From assembly GCA_027451945.1 (NCBI GenBank), contig DAIDHT010000033.1, forward strand, positions 4,245 through 68,244: a DNA stretch of 64,000 bases, written 5' to 3'. Position numbers and translations under genes: made by a program. Source of the stretch: Spirochaetales bacterium (GTDB lineage Bacteria > Spirochaetota > Spirochaetia > JABEVK01). The notes beneath the pieces were generated by a model. The model ran no database searches. It was not told the DNA's origin and saw only the letters and a program-made list of their open reading frames with translations. Below are positions 5,463 to 62,239 of this stretch, piece by piece (positions within the stretch are counted from its first letter, which is position 1; each line of letters begins with the position of its first letter).

Positions 5463-6348
5463 GCGATCCTTTTTGTGGAACGGTGGCTTGCCCGCTGACA
5501 AGTTTTGCTGGTCCGAAGAGTTAGCCTTTTTGCCAAATACGGGCCTCTGGGCTTTGCACCTGCTCAAGAAAAACTCTCCCGAGGGCTCCCTTGAGTTGCG
5601 ACTTCAGCAGAACCAGACTTTGCCACGCACCACGATTCCGCTGGACCAAGCGGCGTCAACCGAGTTGTGGGAACAAGCCCCCGACCGTCTGGTGCGGCGC
5701 TGTGCTCCCCTAGAAAAACTTCTCCCTTCGGGAAAAAAGCTAGCGGGGGAACTTTTTTTATACGACGGACCCTTGGCTGGTTTGAGAACTGCCGTGGTGA
5801 GTTTCGCTTCACGTGAAAAAGCACGACAATTTCGACCACCGCGTCAGTTTGGCTATGAAGTAACGTTCGATCCTCGGTTTAAAGAACAGGCTCTAGGACA
5901 GCCGCAACCGACCATTCCCCTATCAGCAGAGGCCTCGGTAACTTGGGCGTATGGAGCCCTTCCGTTTCGCCAAAAAGGGGCACAAACTGAGCTCATTATC
6001 ATTTCTACCCGTGGTTCCGAAACAACTCGCGGTTCAGCACGCTGGATTTTTCCCAAGGGGCAACCCGAAAAAGGCCTGACGCCAGCGCAAGTGGCGGTTA
6101 TGGAAGGGCATGAAGAGGCCGGACTTCACGGAAGCTTGGTGGGCCACCCGCTACTTTTACCGTTTCAACGCGACGCGGGAACCGATAATTTGGTGCTTTT
6201 TCCCCTGCGAGTCAAAAAATGGGACACGACCTGGCGCGAAGCCGGGCAACGTGAGCGCGCAAGCCTTCCTTTAAACGAGGTTGACCCCCAGGTTCACGGC
6301 GATTTAATTGCTCGGGGCGCCCAAGCGCTTTTTGATCTGTACACCTAG
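5452..6348 (+). CDS. Nudix-like hydrolase domain protein (degenerate Nudix box), coupled to the CHAD gene
   Basis: PKGQPEKGLTPAQVAVMEGHEEAGL aligns with the Nudix box GX5EX7REUXEEXGU, with the Arg replaced by Met and one Glu by Leu. The ATG overlaps the CHAD gene stop. GGAGA SD. Confidence 0.55.
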   Translation: MSYERSFLWNGGLPADKFCWSEELAFLPNTGLWALHLLKKNSPEGSLELRLQQNQTLPRTTIPLDQAASTELWEQAPDRLVRRCAPLEKLLPSGKKLAGELFLYDGPLAGLRTAVVSFASREKARQFRPPRQFGYEVTFDPRFKEQALGQPQPTIPLSAEASVTWAYGALPFRQKGAQTELIIISTRGSETTRGSARWIFPKGQPEKGLTPAQVAVMEGHEEAGLHGSLVGHPLLLPFQRDAGTDNLVLFPLRVKKWDTTWREAGQRERASLPLNEVDPQVHGDLIARGAQALFDLYT

Positions 6349-6389
6349 AGTTGCGCCAGGAATCACCTTATGTTAAGTTAGACGCCGCC

Positions 6390-8162
6390 ATGCGAAAACC
6401 ACTCATTGCCTTCACCCTTTTTGTTCTCGGCGGAGTTTTGTGCGGAGTTGCGCCCCTAACAGCCCAAGAGGCATCTCAAGAATCGGCGCAAAACCTTGAA
6501 CGCCCCGTCGCCGCCGATTCTCCTGTTTATGGGTGGTTGGCCGATTTATTCGCCTCGCAGGGGCAAACCTTACCGACGCGGTTTGCGCCTTCAACCATAC
6601 GTCAAATTTTGTGGGAGCTGAGCCTTTTAGATTCAACACGCTTTGACCGAGGCGAGGCCCAGTTAGCCGCCGCGATCCGCACGACCATCGAGGGTCGCCC
6701 TCAAACGTATCACGAGGGTGCCTTTTCAGCTCGCATCATGCAAGATTTCAACCCCCAGGGCTTTGCCTCGCTGGGGACCTTGCTCCCCTGGTATGACGGT
6801 TACAACACCAGGCCCAATTTGTACGACATAAAACTCGAAGCCAGCGTAGGTAATTGGGTCTGGGCAGGCTTTGATCTCGATTTGAAAAAAGACTACTTCA
6901 CTGACCTTGATCAGCTTCAACCCGTTTCGAACATCCCCCTGTCCGGCTCGGAGCTGGAGTGGATGTGGCCGGATACCGCAGGTATGGTGTTCGGCGGCGA
7001 CCATTGGGATGTGCGCTTTCTTCGAGGCAAGGTAGGCACCCAAGCGGGCTTTTCCAACGCCGCCCTTTCGACCGCTTTGGGCACGGTCGATCAGTTGGGC
7101 TTTTCGACCTGGTGGAAGGGCTTTACCTACAATTTTTTGGTGATCCCCTTTTCAGACTACGCCATCACGCCGGGACAGACCTACTACGGGGGCTACTACA
7201 AAACTACCCCGTTCGATCAGCAAGCCAGTGCCAATAACAACGCTGGGGCCACCTATATGCCGGCCTCGACCACCTACTTTATCGACCACCGCCTCGACTT
7301 TCGCCTCTTTAGCCGCCTCAACCTCACCGTCAGCGAAATTCTGCTGGTGGATATGAGTAGTTTTGACCCACAGTATTTTAACCCGTTCTTTCCCGGTCAT
7401 AACTGGCTTTTACAATCCAACGCCAACTCCGATATCGCGCTCGACCTTAACTGGGCGGCGGCTCCCGGTTGGAACCTCTACGGACAAATCTACGGCGACT
7501 ACATTCGTACTGCCTTTAAAAGCTCCGAGTTTGGCGACGCCAACCCCTTGGCGATGGCCTACCTTGCCGGTTTGCGACGGGTCTGGACAGTCGGCGGCAC
7601 CGTATGGTCCTTTCAAGCCGAGGGAACGTATGCCGATCCGTTTTTGTATTTAAACCCCGATGTCAACGCCGTGTACTACCAGCGTTACCAGACCACCTAC
7701 CAGGGCTCGGGAGGCGAGGGCATTTTTCTCATCGGGCGTCCTTTTGGTTTAGCGGCTGGTCCCGACAGTATTACTGGGGTTCTAGCACTCAAAGCTGAAC
7801 ACCCCCGCCGTTGGAAGCTTTCGTTAACCGCGCCCTTTACCGCCCAAGGGGACAATTCAATTTATACCCCCGCGCCGACCCTAAAAGTCGACCCGTGGAC
7901 GGGCAATCCTAACCCGCTCTACGGAACCACCGGGTATTTAAGCTGGACATCCCCCACGGGGACGGCGATTTTGACCCAGCAGGTGATTCTAACCGCCGAA
8001 GCGGGCCCTGACCTGTTGCAGGGGACGCTGTTAGCCCCCGGCGGCTCAGAGTCCAGCTTGAGTTTGAGCCTTGATTGGGCAACAATTTGGAATCAAAATC
8101 ATGTCGTCAGCGCGCCGGTTAGCGACCTGCAAACGGTGCTGACCTGGAAAAACCGCTGGTAA
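6390..8162 (+). CDS. secreted beta-rich protein, possible outer-membrane protein (hypothetical)
   Basis: 590-aa ORF. The start was moved to the ATG at 6390 (MRKPLIAFTLFVLGGVLCGVAPLTAQEA, a signal peptide). It is rich in Gly/Tyr/Trp/Asn in alternating patterns and ends in an aromatic residue. Confidence 0.55.
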   Translation: MRKPLIAFTLFVLGGVLCGVAPLTAQEASQESAQNLERPVAADSPVYGWLADLFASQGQTLPTRFAPSTIRQILWELSLLDSTRFDRGEAQLAAAIRTTIEGRPQTYHEGAFSARIMQDFNPQGFASLGTLLPWYDGYNTRPNLYDIKLEASVGNWVWAGFDLDLKKDYFTDLDQLQPVSNIPLSGSELEWMWPDTAGMVFGGDHWDVRFLRGKVGTQAGFSNAALSTALGTVDQLGFSTWWKGFTYNFLVIPFSDYAITPGQTYYGGYYKTTPFDQQASANNNAGATYMPASTTYFIDHRLDFRLFSRLNLTVSEILLVDMSSFDPQYFNPFFPGHNWLLQSNANSDIALDLNWAAAPGWNLYGQIYGDYIRTAFKSSEFGDANPLAMAYLAGLRRVWTVGGTVWSFQAEGTYADPFLYLNPDVNAVYYQRYQTTYQGSGGEGIFLIGRPFGLAAGPDSITGVLALKAEHPRRWKLSLTAPFTAQGDNSIYTPAPTLKVDPWTGNPNPLYGTTGYLSWTSPTGTAILTQQVILTAEAGPDLLQGTLLAPGGSESSLSLSLDWATIWNQNHVVSAPVSDLQTVLTWKNRW

Positions 8163-11777: not shown

Positions 11778-11850
11778 GGACGATTAACTCAGCGGTTAGA
11801 GTGCTACCTTCACACGGTAGAAGTCGGTGGTTCGAATCCACTATCGTCCA
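11778..11850 (+). tRNA. tRNA-Val (anticodon CAC)
   Basis: Manual cloverleaf fold: acceptor stem GGACGAT/ATCGTCC, D stem ACTC/GAGT, anticodon stem CTACC/GGTAG with loop TTCACAC (anticodon CAC), T arm GGTGG-TTCGAAT-CCACT and discriminator A. It starts 6 nt after the cyclase stop codon. Confidence 0.85.
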
Positions 11851-45934: not shown

Positions 45935-45973
45935 AATGCAATAATTTGCCTGATCCATCGTCGTATTTAGTGA

Positions 45974-46498
45974 ATGCGCAAAAGCACAGACCTAAACCTG
46001 CAGAAACAAAAGCTGACCGTCCTGTACGAGAGCGAAAGAGGCGCCCTTGTTCGCACCGTCACAGGCCGACTCAGCCAGCGTAAGACCGAGGCCGAGGACA
46101 TAGTCCAAGATGCCTTTGTCAAACTGTGGGAAGCCAACCTCGACCCGATAGAGAATTTGGCAGGCTATGTCTTTACCGCCGTGTCCAATCGGGTTCGCGA
46201 CTGGTTTCGCCGAAAAACTTTGCAACAAGAGGATCTTTCACCAGAATGGGCCGAGCTGATCGCCGATACCCAGAGCGACCAGGTATCAGCCCTAGAAAAC
46301 CAGGAGCGCATGCAGGCCCTTTGGTCGGCAATTGACGATCTGCCGAGTTCGCAAAAAGCAGTTCTCATCGCTACCGAAATCGAAGGCTGGACATTTGAAG
46401 AACTTGCTGATCTTTGGGACGAGCCCTTAGGCACTTTGCTCTCACGCAAACATAGGGCTGTGAAAACTTTGCGCAAAAATCTTAAGCGGCTTTTTTAG
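45974..46498 (+). CDS. RNA polymerase ECF-type sigma-70 factor
   Basis: Region 2 (DIVQDAFVKLWEAN) and region 4 HTH (QKAVLIATEIEGWTFEELADLWDEPLGTLLSRKHRAVKTLRKNL). Confidence 0.8.
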   Translation: MRKSTDLNLQKQKLTVLYESERGALVRTVTGRLSQRKTEAEDIVQDAFVKLWEANLDPIENLAGYVFTAVSNRVRDWFRRKTLQQEDLSPEWAELIADTQSDQVSALENQERMQALWSAIDDLPSSQKAVLIATEIEGWTFEELADLWDEPLGTLLSRKHRAVKTLRKNLKRLF

Positions 46499-46511
46499 CC
46501 AGGAGGACCTT

Positions 46512-46880
46512 ATGCATACTTTTTTTCGTCGACGAACCATGACCCCAGGCCGGCACTTTGCTCGGGGCGCCGGGATAGCTTTACTGATTATTGCAGCCTT
46601 GATCGCTTTTTCTGCCCTGACTCAGCTGCTCTGGAACGCCGTGATTCCGCCTGTGATCGGTTGGAAGAGTCTCACCTTTTTTCAGGCGATGGGCCTTCTT
46701 GTTCTGGCCAAAATCCTGATCGGGTTCGGCGGACCACGCCACCGTCAGGCTTTTGGCCCTTGGGGACGCCCCGGTTGGGGACGAGAGGAATGGCGCAACT
46801 ACCACAATTTCTGGAAAGAAGAAGGGGAGCAAGCCTTCAAAGCCTACCTTGAACGCCAGAAGTCCGAACCTCGCGAGTAA
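46512..46880 (+). CDS. small membrane protein (122 aa, two TM segments), hypothetical
   Basis: AGGAGG SD. It sits immediately downstream of the ECF sigma gene, where an anti-sigma factor would be expected, but no anti-sigma domain is recognisable. Confidence 0.45.
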   Translation: MHTFFRRRTMTPGRHFARGAGIALLIIAALIAFSALTQLLWNAVIPPVIGWKSLTFFQAMGLLVLAKILIGFGGPRHRQAFGPWGRPGWGREEWRNYHNFWKEEGEQAFKAYLERQKSEPRE

Positions 46881-46882
46881 AA

Positions 46883-46952
46883 TCTCCTCCTGCCTTTTGT
46901 TTATTAGTTGTTTACAATATATGTTTTTTACAATATAACAAAGACAGGAGGA
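46883..46952 (+). promoter_or_regulatory. long imperfect inverted repeat that sequesters the SD of the downstream transporter, with an AT-rich loop carrying two TTTACAATATA direct repeats
   Basis: UCCUCCUG (46885-92) pairs perfectly with CAGGAGGA (46945-52), the SD of the ACR3-like gene, and the pairing extends to about 15 bp with one mismatch and one bulge. The loop holds TTTACAATATA at 46911-21 and 46927-37. Confidence 0.5.
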
Positions 46953-46957
46953 CTTTG

Positions 46958-47965
46958 ATGTCTATCTTTCGAAGCTTTTTGGCTTTCCTCAACCGTCGCC
47001 TGACGTGGGGAATCTTTACGGTAATGCTTCTAGGGCTAGTAGTCAGCGGACTGGGCGGGGGGATTGCCTTTAACGTGGGCATTTGTGCAACTGCCTCGTT
47101 TTTGATGATCTACCCCATGTTTATCAATCTACGGCTAGAAGACTTAGCGGAATTACCACGGCACAAGGCACCGGTCGGCTTGGCGTTATTTCTCAATTTT
47201 ATCGTATCGCCCGCCCTTGCCTGGGGGCTTTCTGCGGTTTTTTTGGCTAACCAACCCTACCTGGGGCTAGGTTTGATGTTGATTTCCCTTGTCCCCACCA
47301 GCGGTATGACGGCAACCTGGACCGAACTTTCGCACGGCAACCTTAAGGTAGCGCTCTCGATTATCGCGGCCAGTTTGGTCGTCGTAGTCGTTGGGCTACC
47401 CTTGGCCTTGCCATTTTTTGCTGGTAAGGTTTTGACGGTAGGCCCCTTATTTATTTTGGCTCGCGTGGCCCTGGTCATCGTAATTCCCCTTGTTCTGGGC
47501 GATATTACCCGGCGGTTTCTCGTCGCCAAAAAAGGCCCCGAGGCCTTTAAAAAGCTTAAACCAGTATTTTCTGGCCTGAGCTCGTTGGGACTGATGGCTG
47601 TCTTGTTTCTGATTATGGCCCTTAATACCAATAAAGCTCTCCTTCAGAGGCCAGACCTTGTGTTAACTCTTCTGCCGCCTCTGCTGTTGTACTATGGACT
47701 CATGTTCGGCCTCAGTACGCTCTTGGCGTCGCGCCTTGCCTACCCCACCCGTGTTGCGGTTGTTTATGGCACCTCAGTTCGTTATTTGGCCTTAGCCCTG
47801 GGAATTGCCGTACCTCTGCTGGGTTCAGGAAGCAATTCCAGCCTTGTTGTCCTTGCGATCGCCCTAGCCTTCTTTATCCAAGTTCCCTTCTCGTCCCTTT
47901 ATGCAAAAATCATTGTTCGATGGCACCGTCCAGAACCTGTTGAAAAAGTTCTCACAGCAGAATAA
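46958..47965 (+). CDS. ACR3-family (arsenite efflux-like) BART-superfamily transporter
   Basis: N-terminus FLAFLNRRLTWGIFTVML resembles ACR3 (LSFLDRYLTLWIF...). About 10 TM segments. The start was set at the ATG behind AGGAGG. Confidence 0.65.
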   Translation: MSIFRSFLAFLNRRLTWGIFTVMLLGLVVSGLGGGIAFNVGICATASFLMIYPMFINLRLEDLAELPRHKAPVGLALFLNFIVSPALAWGLSAVFLANQPYLGLGLMLISLVPTSGMTATWTELSHGNLKVALSIIAASLVVVVVGLPLALPFFAGKVLTVGPLFILARVALVIVIPLVLGDITRRFLVAKKGPEAFKKLKPVFSGLSSLGLMAVLFLIMALNTNKALLQRPDLVLTLLPPLLLYYGLMFGLSTLLASRLAYPTRVAVVYGTSVRYLALALGIAVPLLGSGSNSSLVVLAIALAFFIQVPFSSLYAKIIVRWHRPEPVEKVLTAE

Positions 47966-48142
47966 CAATTCTGAGTTATCGTCTACTTCACGCCCAGATA
48001 TAATCACAAAACCAAAAACTTTGTGGCGTATTTCGGGCGAGATGTAGACTATAACGTGGCAAGTTTGTGATTAAATCTGAAAAGTTTATTGACGTAAAAC
48101 TCTGGCAAAACCTGGTGGTTCCCAGCTTGGAACTTTTGCTGA

Positions 48143-49258
48143 TTGACACCATTGCACTTTAGTATAAACTTGTTCTTGGTTATGGTAATTCAGCCCCTCG
48201 TTCTTAACCTTCTTATTGTCTTCAACTGCTTGCTCTTTTTGGGTTTTGCCGTCAGCCGCGTACTCGAGCCTCATAAAAAACAAGGTCAGCTGTGGTCGCT
48301 GGCAGCCAACTTTGCGGGGGCGTTTGATTTTGGCCTTTCGGCACTCAACCATCTGCATGTGCTAGGCCCACAGGGACTTGACCCCTCTTTAGGTTTCTTT
48401 CTCGACATGGTTTGTGGCCCACTGTTGTACCTCTATTACCGTGCCTCCACAGACACTCGCTGGGCTTTGCGCTGGTACCACTGGCTTGGTCTTGTCGTTG
48501 TTGGTGTCTTCACGGCGGGGCATGTGTTGTACCGGCTAGGACACCCAGGGCCGCTACCTTTAGAACTGGATTTGCTCCTGGGCTATCTCATTTTTGCTTG
48601 GTTCATCCTCTTTCAGGTACTTTTTTTGGTTAGAACCGTGGTTCAACTGTGGCGAAAAGCCACCCCGGTAACTCGGTTTATGCTGTTTAACCTCTGTTTT
48701 GCTACCGCATGGAGCTTTTATGGACTGGTTGCCATGCTTCTTTTGACCACGCCCTATTACCGAACAATAGTCCTTTTTGGTAGCTTTCTATTTTTAGGAA
48801 TGATTCTTTTTTATCCGCTGAAGGTGGGCAGCACAAAACTCCCTGACCTTTCGCAACAAAAAGAACCTAATCCGGCACCGCTTCTTGGAGTTGATCTTCC
48901 CCGAGTGCTTCAGAAATTAGAAGAAGTCATGCGAGTGAACAAGCTTTTTCGTGACAAAGACCTCACCTTGGCCCGCTTGGCACAAACCATAAGGTTAACA
49001 ACACGGCAATTGTCCGCACTCCTCAATCAGGTCTTGGGGGTGAACTACACGCAATACGTCAACGCCTGGCGATTGGACGAAGCGAAAAACCTCCTGCTCA
49101 CCTCTCCTGAAAAAACCGTCTTAGAAATTGCGTTTTTGTCCGGTTTCGGCTCGAAAACCGCCTTCAATTCGTTTTTTGTCCGTGCCACGGGAATGACACC
49201 TCGTGAGTTTCGCCACGAGGTTCCGTTAGAGCCGGAGCTTACCGAGCTGGCAGAATAG
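48143..49258 (+). CDS. AraC-family transcriptional regulator with N-terminal multi-TM sensor domain
   Basis: C-terminal AraC HTH pair (LARLAQTIRLTTRQLSALLNQVLG ... EIAFLSGFGSKTAFNSFFVRATGMTPREFR) after six hydrophobic segments. Confidence 0.75.
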   Translation: MTPLHFSINLFLVMVIQPLVLNLLIVFNCLLFLGFAVSRVLEPHKKQGQLWSLAANFAGAFDFGLSALNHLHVLGPQGLDPSLGFFLDMVCGPLLYLYYRASTDTRWALRWYHWLGLVVVGVFTAGHVLYRLGHPGPLPLELDLLLGYLIFAWFILFQVLFLVRTVVQLWRKATPVTRFMLFNLCFATAWSFYGLVAMLLLTTPYYRTIVLFGSFLFLGMILFYPLKVGSTKLPDLSQQKEPNPAPLLGVDLPRVLQKLEEVMRVNKLFRDKDLTLARLAQTIRLTTRQLSALLNQVLGVNYTQYVNAWRLDEAKNLLLTSPEKTVLEIAFLSGFGSKTAFNSFFVRATGMTPREFRHEVPLEPELTELAE

Positions 49259-49377
49259 TTCGACTCGGTCTAGCAAGGGAATTACTACCTTTTGCCTTGA
49301 GAATTATCGAAACTTTGTTGGTGCAAAATTCTGGACTTAAACCATTTGTTTTCCTTATCCTTGAGGTGAGGTTACCC

Positions 49378-51675
49378 ATGAAAACCGAAGTTAAATCTGT
49401 TTTTAGCTTTCAAGCCCTCCTTGATTTTTGGCAAGCGCAAAAAGGCGCAGAGGCCTGGCTTAAGCTTTTAGACTTACCCGCGCCGGAAGATCGCGCTGGG
49501 TGGATGAACTATTTACAAACTCATGCTGACGCCCCTTCTGTCCGGTTGTTCTTTTCAGCGGTTATTCCTACTGCCTTCTGGGAGAGTGAAATCTCGGCTT
49601 TAGTGCCACCGTTTGAAATGGATCCTGTTTTGGCCACCCCGCGTTTTCTTTCACTGATGCGGCACAAGCGGCCACAAGACAAGGCCGATTCGGTTGAAAT
49701 GTTTTTTTGTTTTGCTTGGTCCTTTGCTCTCAGTAAACTATATCAGCGCCCTGAGCTTTTGAGCTCCGTTCACCCCATACTTTCACTGATTGACCCCGAA
49801 AGTGGGTTTACCCAGCACTTTCAGTTGAGCATGAAGACAGACTTTTTGTGGGTAAACGCCTTGAAGCCGCTCAAAGTCCTTGACGAACAGCAATGGGCAC
49901 AACTGAAAGCTGACCCCAATAACCGTGAGCTGTTGTCGCAAATGCTTCCCCCGGGGTCCTTTGAGTTTCGCGGGTTTGTGTTCCTGACCGCCCAAGATAT
50001 TACGGCGACCCGTCAAGTGTCACAGCTAAAAGAAGCGTTGCTCTTACCCTCGGCCATTACTTCAAACCTGGGTCTCTCTCAAGTCGAAACTCTCCTATCC
50101 TCGTGGCTAGAACAAAAAAATCTTAAGCTCAATATAGCGGGGATCCACGAAAACAAAGTGACGATCATGCATTCGGTCGAGTTATCACAGGCCGATTGTT
50201 GGCTTCAGGATCAACGAGAGTTTGTAACCCAAGATTTTACCGGTTCGTTGTTTGAAAAAGCCTACGTTGAGAAAAAAATGCTGTGGGTTGAGGACGTGTC
50301 AAAATTACCTTCGCCCTCAGAGTTAGAAGTCCATATGCAAAACAAAGGGGTTCGTTCGCTCCTGGTCGCGCCACTGATTTTTGAAGACCAGGTGTTGGGT
50401 ACCTTTGGACTGACCTCTGCCCAACCCGGAGCCTTGGGCGCCAGTCAAGCCGAAAAACTTCAAGAAGTGTTACCCCTGTTCGCCCTAGCCCTCCACGCGA
50501 GCTTAGAAGATTTAGAAAACCGCATTCAGCGCATCATTCAGGAACGCTACACCGCGATTCACCCTTCTGTTGCCTGGAAATTTCGCCAGGAGGCTCTGAA
50601 GTTGCTTAAAGAACAAGCTAACTGTGGCGTCGCTGAACCTAACTTGACCTTTGACGGCGTCTACCCGCTTTACGCTGCCACCGATATCCGCAATTCTTCG
50701 GTCACTCGGAACAACGCCATAGCGACCGACCTCGAATTGCACCTCAAGTTGGCCTTAAAGGTTTTACAAGAAGCCCGCCAAGTAAAGGATTTTCCCGTTT
50801 TTCAAGAGCTTCAATTTCAAGTCGAACGCTACTTGAAGCATTTAGACAACGGTCTTTCCTCTGGGGACGAAATCGGTATTCTGCACTTTTTGCGTGACGA
50901 TGTTGAAGCAAGCTTTATCGACCTGAAACACTGGAGTTCCGGTGTCGATCAGGCCTTACGCGAGTATCAAGATTCTTTGGACCCCCAGGGTCGATTTGTC
51001 TATCGTAAACGAAAAGATTTTGACGACTCGGTGGCTCGAATCAACTCGGAACTCTCTCGGCTTCTCGAAACCGAACAGGTCTGGGCCCAGGCAATGTTCC
51101 CGCATTATTTTGACAAAACGTCCACCGATGGGGTGGATTTCAACATGTATATTGGCGCAAGCCTTTCGCAACATCATCAGTTTGACCGGCTTTATCTGCG
51201 AAACTTGCGCTTATGGCAATTTATTTTACTGTGTAAAGCGGCACGCCTGAGTCACACTCTCGCCCCACAACTCCCCCTCCCCTTAGAAACCACCCATCTC
51301 ATTGTGGTTCAGGATTTGCCCATTACCATTCGTTTTCGTGAGGATGAAAAAAGCTTCTCGGTCGAAGGCGCCTACAACACCCGCTATGAGATCATGAAAA
51401 AGCGAATTGACAAAGCCGTTATAAAAGGTAGCGGTGAACGGCTGACCCAAATCCATCAAATTGCCCTCGTGTATACCCAACCCTCCGAAGCCCTTGAGTA
51501 CCGGCGGTACATCGTCTTTCTACAGAGTGAAGGGTTGTTAGAAGATGCCGTCGAAGAGTTTGAACTTGATGACCTTCAGGGAATTCATGGTCTGCACGCC
51601 CTTAGGGTTAAAGTTCGCCTCGACGGCGATCACGATACGGCAAAGCTGGTCGAACGACTTCAAGAAAACGCCTAA
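49378..51675 (+). CDS. GAF domain-containing protein (765 aa), function unknown
   Basis: Central GAF-like block (LWVEDVSKLPS...SLLVAPLIFEDQVLGTFGLTSAQPGALG). The start was moved to the ATG at 49378 behind GAGGTGAGG. Confidence 0.55.
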   Translation: MKTEVKSVFSFQALLDFWQAQKGAEAWLKLLDLPAPEDRAGWMNYLQTHADAPSVRLFFSAVIPTAFWESEISALVPPFEMDPVLATPRFLSLMRHKRPQDKADSVEMFFCFAWSFALSKLYQRPELLSSVHPILSLIDPESGFTQHFQLSMKTDFLWVNALKPLKVLDEQQWAQLKADPNNRELLSQMLPPGSFEFRGFVFLTAQDITATRQVSQLKEALLLPSAITSNLGLSQVETLLSSWLEQKNLKLNIAGIHENKVTIMHSVELSQADCWLQDQREFVTQDFTGSLFEKAYVEKKMLWVEDVSKLPSPSELEVHMQNKGVRSLLVAPLIFEDQVLGTFGLTSAQPGALGASQAEKLQEVLPLFALALHASLEDLENRIQRIIQERYTAIHPSVAWKFRQEALKLLKEQANCGVAEPNLTFDGVYPLYAATDIRNSSVTRNNAIATDLELHLKLALKVLQEARQVKDFPVFQELQFQVERYLKHLDNGLSSGDEIGILHFLRDDVEASFIDLKHWSSGVDQALREYQDSLDPQGRFVYRKRKDFDDSVARINSELSRLLETEQVWAQAMFPHYFDKTSTDGVDFNMYIGASLSQHHQFDRLYLRNLRLWQFILLCKAARLSHTLAPQLPLPLETTHLIVVQDLPITIRFREDEKSFSVEGAYNTRYEIMKKRIDKAVIKGSGERLTQIHQIALVYTQPSEALEYRRYIVFLQSEGLLEDAVEEFELDDLQGIHGLHALRVKVRLDGDHDTAKLVERLQENA

Positions 51676-60905: not shown

Positions 60906-61823
60906 TTACTTCTCGTCAAAGTCATAGGTGAACAACCCCTGGGCATCTTTACCCGTCCCATTGGCAAACGCCGACATCCGAAAGCCGTAGAGCACCGCCG
61001 CATCGACCTCCGAGTTTCCGCTGGAACGATCGAGAGTTACCCTGAGCAAAACCGGTGGTTGACCGTTGTGAGGCGCCGACAGGGTAAAGCTGAGGGTAAC
61101 AGGGGTAAGGGTATTCCCTCGTTTGTACTCGGCATCCGTCAAGTTGTAGCCAGCATCCTGGAGGGTCAGCCACAATCGCGGCCTAGCGTCAAAAGGAGGT
61201 TGAGCGGTCAAGCGCCAAAATCCCCCCTCTCGTCGATAAAAGGCCAAAAGCTCGTCTTTGCGTTGTTGAGCTGTTTCAAACCCATCTTGGCTACCCGGTA
61301 TCTTGGCAATTAACGAAGGCGAAAGCCTTGTGGGAAGCGGCATATACAGATAAATCGGCACGTACAGACTGCGGCCGACATGACCAGCCCCCCCCTGAAA
61401 GACGGTTTCCATCGAGTTGCCGGTTTCACTGCCTTTGACGACGCGCACCTGTTGCTGTGGTTGGGACGGGGTTTGAACCTTCTTGGGTTCAGAAGGTGTC
61501 TGAGTTTTGCTTGATGTTACTTTTGAAGTCTGCACCTTGGGCAGGGGCGGTTGTGAAACAGTCTCGGACACTGACGAAACAGCTTGTTCCGGAACAAAGG
61601 CTGGGTCAGGAATCGGATTGACCTTCAAAGGGACGTTTTCACCGTCGGGTGAACCCAACTTGACGGCTATAGCGTCGCCTTGAGTATCACTAAGGCGAAT
61701 AAGGTGGTTGAGTCCTGCAAACCACAACACCAACACCGTGACAAGAACCGCGCCTAAGGAAATTCCCCAGCTGATTTGCGCCCTTTTGTGGTATTGAGCT
61801 TCGCGCCACGTATCCCAAGACAT
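60906..61823 (-). CDS. TonB-like energy transducer (N-terminal anchor, Pro/Lys/Gln-rich linker, C-terminal domain)
   Basis: A single N-terminal TM (ISWGISLGAVLVTVLVLWFAG), a PLPKVQTSKVTSSKTQTPSEPKKVQTPSQPQQ linker and a position directly after exbD. The C-terminal domain is divergent. Confidence 0.5.
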   Translation of the reverse strand: MSWDTWREAQYHKRAQISWGISLGAVLVTVLVLWFAGLNHLIRLSDTQGDAIAVKLGSPDGENVPLKVNPIPDPAFVPEQAVSSVSETVSQPPLPKVQTSKVTSSKTQTPSEPKKVQTPSQPQQQVRVVKGSETGNSMETVFQGGAGHVGRSLYVPIYLYMPLPTRLSPSLIAKIPGSQDGFETAQQRKDELLAFYRREGGFWRLTAQPPFDARPRLWLTLQDAGYNLTDAEYKRGNTLTPVTLSFTLSAPHNGQPPVLLRVTLDRSSGNSEVDAAVLYGFRMSAFANGTGKDAQGLFTYDFDEK

Positions 61824-62239
61824 CAGGAGGGTCTCCTGGCCAGCCTTGTCATCAGGTTGACTCCGTCTATACCTGCTTGTCGCAAATGATCAAGAACGGA
61901 AACCACCAGCTGATACGGAGCATCATAACCGCCTTCAACAACAACGCGAAGGTGGGCTCGATCTTTTCCCGCCAGCTCTTGTTTCAAAAGCCCATCCAGA
62001 CCCGCCAACGCTACTTTTTGCCCATCCACCCAAATTTCCGATTCAGAAACCACCGTCAACCTCACGGTCGTCATGCTCACCGCTTTAGCCGTTGACGACA
62101 CTGGCAACTGAACCGCCAGACCCGGGCCAACCCGAAACACCGTGGCCAAAAGAAAAAAGACCAGAAGCATCAGGATCACATCAATGAGCGGCGTCAGGTT
62201 AAGCGGCGGCAACGTTGGTAAACTGCGACGAAATTTCAT
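61823..62239 (-). CDS. exbD: biopolymer transport protein ExbD/TolR
   Basis: NLTPLIDVILMLLVFFL is the ExbD/TolR TM signature. 138 aa. Confidence 0.85.
   Translation of the reverse strand: MKFRRSLPTLPPLNLTPLIDVILMLLVFFLLATVFRVGPGLAVQLPVSSTAKAVSMTTVRLTVVSESEIWVDGQKVALAGLDGLLKQELAGKDRAHLRVVVEGGYDAPYQLVVSVLDHLRQAGIDGVNLMTRLARRPS

Follow-up and report, generated by a model that had tools for sequence, protein, structure and literature searches.

What is the role of the 77-nt spacer that, in an uncultured spirochaete, separates the stop codon of a 122-amino-acid (aa) membrane open reading frame (ORF) from the ATG of an SBF/BASS-superfamily transporter gene? The spacer lies in a 64,000-nt stretch of the Spirochaetales contig DAIDHT010000033.1 (the window, whose positions serve as coordinates throughout). 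As a first-pass annotation of the sequence had described, it is flanked on one side by a gene pair for an ECF-type (extracytoplasmic function) sigma factor and a small membrane protein, and on the other by the transporter and an AraC-type regulator. It holds an inverted repeat whose downstream arm contains the Shine-Dalgarno (SD) sequence of the transporter gene, and that annotation took it for an anti-SD:SD translational off-switch, such as an RNA thermometer or a riboregulator opened by a protein or ligand. We compared the element with related loci (denoted L001, L132 and so on) and found that its helix covaries in four versions of the locus, as expected of a selected structure; the thermometer and the ligand aptamer find no support. 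In our view the anti-SD:SD interpretation holds, and the likeliest design is a known one, a promoter inside a hairpin that masks a ribosome-binding site (RBS), here in a new setting.

The sequence of the arms is as originally described. The 5′ arm UCCUCCUG (as DNA or RNA also written TCCTCCTG) at 46885-92 is the exact complement of CAGGAGGA at 46945-52, which includes the SD GGAGGA (46947-52); a 5-nt spacer, CTTTG, follows, and the ATG at 46958 starts at the sixth base after the SD. The estimate of about 15 bp with one mismatch and one bulge agrees with RNAfold, which predicts stem segments of 8, 4 and 3 bp, interrupted by a C.A mismatch and a bulged U. The 35-nt loop reported earlier applies to this fold of the window, but the helix that is conserved among loci has 13 bp around a 42-nt loop. 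Its 5′ (anti-SD) arm UCCUCCUGCCUUU spans 46885-46897 on the plus strand, and its 3′ arm AAAGACAGGAGGA, supported by sequence, fold and covariation, spans 46940-46952 on the same strand; the inner 3 bp, which extend the pairing to 46901 after the bulge, are specific to the window.

The hairpin is more than a chance pairing, since it folds better than shuffled sequences, its arm pair is unique and its SD is the least accessible in the window. The minimum free energy (MFE) of 46870-46970 is −21.1 kcal/mol, compared with −13.3 ± 2.5 in 200 dinucleotide shuffles, none of which folded as well (z −3.07). A single copy of the combination TCCTCCTG-N(30-60)-CAGGAGGA is present in the window, and none in 100 shuffles. 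When every SD-bearing start in the window that belongs to an ORF of 100 aa or more was folded in its own context, the transporter SD was the most sequestered of the 27, with an unpaired probability of 0.000; in modelled RNA that reads through from the upstream genes, this probability is 0.02 for the window and 0.02-0.17 across the four versions described below. The earlier view that the element is not a simple intrinsic terminator also holds, as no U-tract follows the stem (the tail reads CUUUGAUG) and a terminator scan calls nothing at the site or elsewhere between the two genes. A search of Rfam 15 assigned the element to no family; the sole overlapping match was mir-231, on the minus strand, whose 18.4 bits (E = 4) fall short of the gathering score of 50.

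After the transporter SD, the least accessible in the window is that of a 305-aa ORF without family match on the minus strand (61823-61850; unpaired probability 0.01). There a 6-bp local hairpin, CAGGAG-ACC-CUCCUG, lies at the start codon, and the region is no more stable than shuffled sequences (z −1.2).

Protein searches with the SBF proteins and the 122-aa ORF uncovered four distinct versions of the locus, all from Spirochaetales metagenome-assembled genomes (MAGs) or metagenomes; exact or near-exact copies of the locus were likewise found only in metagenome assemblies and MAGs. The window version is shared by L001 and L002 and serves as the reference. The SBF protein is 94% identical to it in L008 (the same version as L009 and L010; GCA_021782055.1), 91% in L003 (the same as L004) and 81% in L132. 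Between the window and L132, only 57 of 147 fourfold-degenerate sites are identical in the SBF gene (39%) and 13 of 42 in the upstream ORF, indicating that neutral sites are close to saturation between these two.

Against this divergence, the 13-bp helix is kept in all four versions, with 96.2% of the alignment cells paired, as are the SD and ATG of the SBF gene. Pairs were counted in an ungapped alignment with the loop trimmed by 1 nt in the window and 4 nt in L008, as loop-length differences led MAFFT to misalign the 5′ arm. Three pairs have changed on both sides: pair 9 (C.A, U-A, U.G and C-G), pair 10 (C-G and U-A) and pair 11 (U-A and C-G), the last by at least two independent double changes given the gene-identity tree. 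Shifting the 3′ partners by one to three columns lowers the pairing to 54-75%. In the outer part of the 5′ arm, opposite the fixed SD, the changes are C-to-U substitutions that keep G.U pairs, with one exception, a U-to-C change at the terminal pair in L003 that creates a C.A mismatch. Two cells are unpaired when the plus strand is read as RNA and four when the minus strand is, a mild preference for a plus-strand RNA helix over a minus-strand one or a symmetry of duplex DNA. Judged from these substitution patterns, the anti-SD:SD helix is a selected feature rather than a product of chance.

The loop is conserved in a different manner. It spans 46898-46939 (plus strand), with a GC content of 14-17% compared with 52% for the window, and is the most AT-rich 42-nt stretch of the 64 kb: the 15 lowest-GC windows of that length all start at 46891-46905. 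As RNA it is AU-rich and predicted to be largely unstructured. The two direct repeats that had been noted in it are confirmed as the 11-mer TTTACAATATA, present exactly twice (46911-21 and 46927-37, plus strand) and 5 nt apart, giving a 16-bp period; these are the sole matches in 64 kb at up to one mismatch, where 0.39 would be expected. Neither 11-mer differs at any base among the four versions (22 of 22 identical). From the first repeat to the AC after the second, the 29-nt core is identical at 27-29 of its 29 positions (27 between the window and L132), and its changes are confined to the 5-nt spacer between the repeats, which reads TGTTT, TCGTT or TTATT. Given the near-saturation of neutral sites, we conclude from this comparison that the repeats are under strong, sequence-specific purifying constraint, which would fit a binding site for a protein or for RNA polymerase.

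The repeats also overlap promoter-like hexamers. The first six bases of repeat 1, TTTACA (46911-16), resemble a −35 element, and the end of repeat 2 together with the following AC forms a −10-like TATAAC (46934-39), so that TTTACA-17-TATAAC matches the sigma-70 consensus TTGACA-17-TATAAT at 10 of 12 positions. Our built-in promoter scan passed over this site because its second hexamer ends in C. Other genes in the window are preceded by canonical sigma-70-like sites. One is the tRNA-Val (CAC) gene (11778-11850, plus strand), where TTGACG-18-TATATT ends about 9 nt before the gene; this site suggests that the spirochaete of the window uses canonical sigma-70 hexamers. A possible leader peptide in the loop, ATG TTT TTT ACA ATA TAA (46921-38), was discarded as a candidate, as L003 and L132 have lost it and only the window and L008 versions contain it.

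To which of its neighbours does the element belong? A comparison of L132 with L133 (GCA_021781625.1) is informative here. The flanks of these two loci are ~99.7% identical (20 mismatches in 6,385 nt on one side and 1 in 1,239 nt on the other), but a 1,099-nt segment of L132 (6386-7484), which runs from 17 nt ahead of the 5′ arm to the SBF stop codon, is replaced in L133 by 86 unrelated nt (6386-6471). L133 thus retains the sigma factor and membrane-ORF pair without the element and without SBF. Since hairpin, repeats and SBF are missing together, they behave as one unit of gain or loss, and from this allele pair we conclude that the element belongs to the SBF cassette and not to the end of the upstream operon. 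The sequence TTAG is found at both junctions of both alleles. In L132, an extra small hairpin, AAACAUG-N11-CAUGUUU (6373-6397), follows the stop codon and precedes the anti-SD arm; the DNA of its 5′ half is also present in L133, and that of its 3′ half is specific to the cassette.

We propose that the 77-nt spacer is a two-layer 5′ control module of the SBF gene itself, consisting of a promoter or operator in the loop and an arm that masks the SD on read-through messages; we hold this proposal tentatively, giving it a little less than an even chance. In the first layer, at the DNA level, the AT-rich loop would carry the gene's own promoter and/or operator, TTTACA-17-TATAAC within the invariant repeats, and a transcript initiated there would begin at about 46941-46947. 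In the second layer, at the RNA level, transcripts reading through from the operon of the sigma factor and the 122-aa ORF, which is the likely source of transcription entering the element, would contain the 5′ arm UCCUCCUG. In these transcripts the arm would fold onto the SD and mask it, so that they would be poorly translated. Messages initiated in the loop would be translatable because they lack the 5′ arm. In silico, across the four versions, the cost of opening the region from the SD to the AUG is 10.9-15.8 kcal/mol when the RNA reads through and 4.0-9.3 kcal/mol when it starts in the loop. For most modelled starts the two differ by ~6-8 kcal/mol (range 4.8-9.9), and a difference is predicted for all four versions.

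The design is known mainly from phage T4 and insertion sequences. In T4, I-TevI/II/III, segB, mobE, soc and e have RBS-sequestering hairpins that form only on transcripts from upstream promoters, while a late promoter inside the hairpin gives rise to translatable RNA; for I-TevI, an operator overlaps the late promoter (PMC2988022). The spirochaete element shares with these genes a stable hairpin over a consensus SD ~5-8 nt before the AUG, formed only on upstream-initiated transcripts, and a promoter-like element between the arms whose transcript, as we infer here, would lack the inhibitory arm. The overlap of operator and promoter at I-TevI also has a parallel, in that the invariant repeats overlap the promoter-like hexamers. 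Unlike the T4 cases, the element belongs to a transporter cassette on a bacterial chromosome, its hexamers are sigma-70-like rather than those of the T4 late promoter TATAAATA, and its large 42-nt loop contains two 11-bp direct repeats.

A second precedent is the 'protection from outside activation' of IS10 and IS50, a fold-back inhibition of transposase translation reportedly described by Davis, Simons and Kleckner in 1985 and by Krebs and Reznikoff in 1986. As in these insertion sequences, read-through transcripts entering from outside would bring along a stretch complementary to the RBS region and could fold back on it, the gene's own promoter (here a candidate one) lies downstream of that complementary sequence, and the regulated gene is part of a module that is gained and lost. 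Unlike them, the module consists of a transporter gene, lacks a transposase and terminal inverted repeats, and is not present in multiple copies.

Several observations weigh against the idea of a promoter inside the masking hairpin. The covariation comes from only four versions, and its score was reached by 23 of 500 column shuffles; the minus strand of the element also folds better than expected (z −4.9). The loop promoter is put forward from a hexamer match, in a window where sites matching at least 10 of 12 positions show no enrichment (13, compared with 9.5 ± 3.5 in shuffles), and its TATAAC lacks the usually conserved final T. The SD is still partly paired in loop-initiated RNAs, with an unpaired probability of 0.10-0.38. 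Finally, the invariance of the 11-mers exceeds what sigma-70 hexamers require, so that a further factor that reads the repeats must be assumed.

Of the alternatives, translational coupling by RNA unfolding survives best, and we consider it unlikely, though far from negligible, as the explanation of the element. SBF would then be expressed only from the operon transcript, and a ribosome finishing the 122-aa ORF would occupy or unwind the anti-SD arm and so free the SD. Coupling of this kind is exemplified by f1 VII-IX, MS2 coat-lysis and rpmI-rplT. As in these pairs, the sequence that closes the SD is within reach of the terminating ribosome in three versions: 4 nt separate the stop codon from the 8-bp SD-pairing segment in the window and L008, and 3 nt in L003, where the first pair of that segment is a C.A mismatch. 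Blocking the bases covered by a terminating ribosome (up to +12 or +15 from the stop) makes the SD of the window and L008 versions more accessible in the model, its unpaired probability rising from 0.02 to 0.12-0.25, the level of RNAs that lack the arm. In L003 the value is 0.16 at the outset, and the blocked values are mixed (0.25, 0.31 and 0.13, the last two at +12 and +15). The absence of a terminator between the genes would also suit coupling, and at other gene pairs RNA unfolding is an established model (PMC12548453).

The comparison with L132 argues against coupling as the conserved function. In this version the arm starts 30 nt after the stop codon, behind the small hairpin mentioned above, and blocking the ribosome positions has no effect (SD unpaired probability 0.019); the coupled geometry is lost, yet the helix and the repeats are fully kept. 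The distance from stop to start, 77 nt in the window, is long for efficient coupling (PMC12548453), and the intergenic distances of 77-102 nt set the locus apart from known coupled pairs. Nor would coupling explain the invariant repeats and the extreme AT-richness of the loop, which has no role in such a scheme, and the element is gained and lost with SBF independently of the upstream ORF. Coupling could, however, coexist with a promoter inside the hairpin, as a possible extra layer in three of the versions rather than as a conserved function.

The riboregulator suggested at first would require that a protein or small RNA (sRNA) binds the two UUUACAAUAUA repeats in the loop, destabilises the stem and turns on SBF translation, which we consider improbable. 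A loop conserved in sequence above a stem that covaries is what one would expect if the loop were read by sequence and the stem by shape, and an SD that stays closed at all temperatures would need an opener if there were no internal promoter. With rpoS-type leaders, which are opened by sRNAs, and with ROSE and FourU thermometers, the element shares an anti-SD:SD helix in the leader. Unlike all of these, its stem is too stable to melt and has no Rfam match, and unlike rpoS-type leaders it conserves the loop and not the 5′ arm, which an activating sRNA would target. The 13-bp helix, in a context of about −19 to −27 kcal/mol, would be hard to open from the loop. For the loop itself no structure is predicted, and it looks like promoter DNA, being AT-rich with −35 and −10 hexamers 17 nt apart; together with the lack of an Rfam family, its AU-rich, largely unstructured character leaves the ligand-opened variant unsupported. 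There is also no further copy of the motif in the 64 kb or in relatives that would indicate a regulon, and no candidate RNA-binding protein among the nearby genes in the Pfam and NCBIfam annotation. If this explanation were nevertheless correct, the switch would tie an ECF-sigma stress operon to the transporter. Repeats that are read in RNA and not in DNA would make the element a new, lineage-restricted class of trans-activated translational switch, a prospect we regard as strongly doubtful.

It is also quite improbable that the element acts purely as a DNA operator, with inverted and direct repeats bound by a transcription factor such as the neighbouring AraC-type protein and the RNA hairpin as a by-product. 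AraC-family proteins often bind direct-repeat sites. The direct repeats are invariant, and their strong constraint bears out the operator-like look that had been noted, insofar as it fits a site for a protein or RNA polymerase; SBF is closely followed by a gene for an AraC-family regulator in the window and, in two pieces, in L008. The arms, however, change in sequence while remaining complementary, with G.U intermediates that would not pair in duplex DNA, whereas an operator half-site would keep its sequence, and the 3′ arm is the SD itself. The 16-bp period would place the repeats on opposite faces of the DNA helix, and in L132, whose contig ends ~1.3 kb beyond SBF, no AraC gene is called past SBF.

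The remaining two explanations fare worse. That the element is a 3′-end feature of the sigma/122-aa mRNA (a terminator, processing site or stabilising hairpin) which overlaps the SD incidentally is very improbable: it directly follows the stop codon in three of the four versions and no other terminator is present, but it has a 42-nt loop and no U-tract, it is inherited with SBF, and L133 keeps the upstream pair without it. The related sigma pair of L134 ends in a classical GC stem with a U8 tract, showing that ordinary terminators are in use in the lineage. An RNA thermometer is barely credible, even though the SD is paired within a hairpin, since a run of 8-13 uninterrupted pairs, most of them G-C, is much too stable to melt: in silico the SD remains ~80-98% paired (unpaired probability ~0.02-0.2) from 15 to 75 °C in all four versions, and Rfam gave no ROSE or FourU match at E values up to 5.

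If the promoter-inside-hairpin proposal is correct, the element would show, on the chromosome of an uncultured spirochaete, a clean case of a design otherwise met mostly in phage T4 and in insertion sequences. An accessory cassette with a promoter inside such a hairpin would silence read-through from its neighbours, and its expression would rest solely on the cassette's own control. This would bear on how horizontally exchanged genes are insulated from the context into which they insert, and at ~70 nt the element would make a compact natural insulator part. The finding opens no long-standing question, and nothing in it goes against current understanding.

The element appears to be confined to this cassette. 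A covariance model built from the four versions found nothing other than the element itself in the window and 86 kb of related and other loci, and degenerate matches to the 11-mer (up to two mismatches) were at chance level. The lack of a second copy there implies that the element is single-copy and lineage-restricted, and not a dispersed repeat of the repetitive extragenic palindrome or miniature inverted-repeat transposable element type; the concern that it might be a common intergenic repeat is thereby addressed. Searching 185,579 genomes for TTTACAATATA-N(0-30)-TTTACAATATA returned at least 119 matches in unrelated AT-rich taxa, the pattern being too loose; among the matches listed, one (a Methanobacterium) had a 5-nt gap and none had an SD context, and the scan is uninformative on the source genome. 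A stricter 24-base pattern gave one match in a metagenome scan, in an unrelated, very AT-rich contig, which we take as chance.

The next closest SBF homologues, ~65% identical (L006/L007, L137, L138 and L139), are preceded by unrelated sequence that contains neither an anti-SD arm nor the repeats; one of these homologues is from Rectinemataceae and one from Treponema. On the Rectinemataceae contig (L138, 2275-4014), the homologue (66% identical) is divergently oriented beside another ECF sigma gene, and the spacer between them contains TTGACA followed by an AT-rich stretch with the inverted repeat AATATAG...CTATATT. The recurring neighbourhood of an ECF sigma gene and an SBF transporter in spirochaetes may be functional.

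A larger difference is seen in L011 (11259-13238), which is without the whole block of sigma, 122-aa, SBF, AraC and GAF genes (~45974-51675 in the window); the gap lies between a gene for a U32 peptidase and the next conserved genes, which include a hemerythrin gene. Judging from the loci compared, accessory genes have a hot spot downstream of the U32 peptidase. An integron attC site, which the presence or absence of the cassette as a whole had brought to mind, seems an unlikely identity for the element, as inspection of the arms by eye revealed no RYYYAAC or GTTRRRY core sites, and no integrase is encoded nearby.

The ECF-type sigma factor gene is the first of the upstream pair (45974-46498, plus strand; Pfam Sigma70_r2 and r4_2; NCBIfam TIGR02937 with 80.6 bits against a cutoff of 42.9), and its position is the same in L001, L003, L008 and L132. 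Upstream of its ATG at 45974, the motif GCAATAA-N14-CGTC (45938-45962) is kept in all four versions within a spacer that has otherwise diverged and varies in length. It looks like an ECF-type promoter that is probably autoregulated; as it lies only ~11 nt before the sigma ATG, the mRNA would be nearly leaderless. The loop of the element has no counterpart of this motif, with no CGTC at the right distance, and an ECF-sigma promoter in the loop was discarded as a candidate.

The 122-aa membrane ORF (46512-46880, plus strand; stop codon TAA at 46878-80) had no match in Pfam and NCBIfam searches. It is nevertheless a real gene, as its protein is conserved far above its fourfold-degenerate sites (72-90% aa identity among versions compared with 31-68% identity at these sites). 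An anti-sigma role would be only a guess from its position.

The SBF gene encodes 335 aa (46958-47965, plus strand; Pfam PF01758 at 1.5e-27). The initial description of it as ACR3-like holds for a distant likeness only: it scores 95 bits against TIGR00832, the NCBIfam ACR3 equivalog, where the cutoff is 282.8, so the threshold for an ACR3 arsenite efflux protein is not reached and the protein is best placed in the SBF family. Just past its stop codon, a long imperfect hairpin of ~89 nt (47971-48059, plus strand) lies in a 186-nt spacer with an MFE of −49.4 kcal/mol (z −3.36). This hairpin is nearly identical in L008 (about 5 differences in ~105 nt), more so than the neighbouring coding DNA, and unrecognisable in L003. 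It could serve the SBF mRNA as a terminator or stabiliser, or belong to the region that controls the AraC-type gene; further on, at 48143-70, is a TTGACA-16-TAAACT site.

The AraC-type regulator (48143-49258, plus strand) appears to be membrane-anchored and has an HTH_18 domain at residues 279-358. Its ~250 N-terminal residues match no family and appear membrane-embedded by eye. In L008 the corresponding gene (6150-6952) is broken into ORFs of 188 and 75 aa, possibly a pseudogene or an assembly error.

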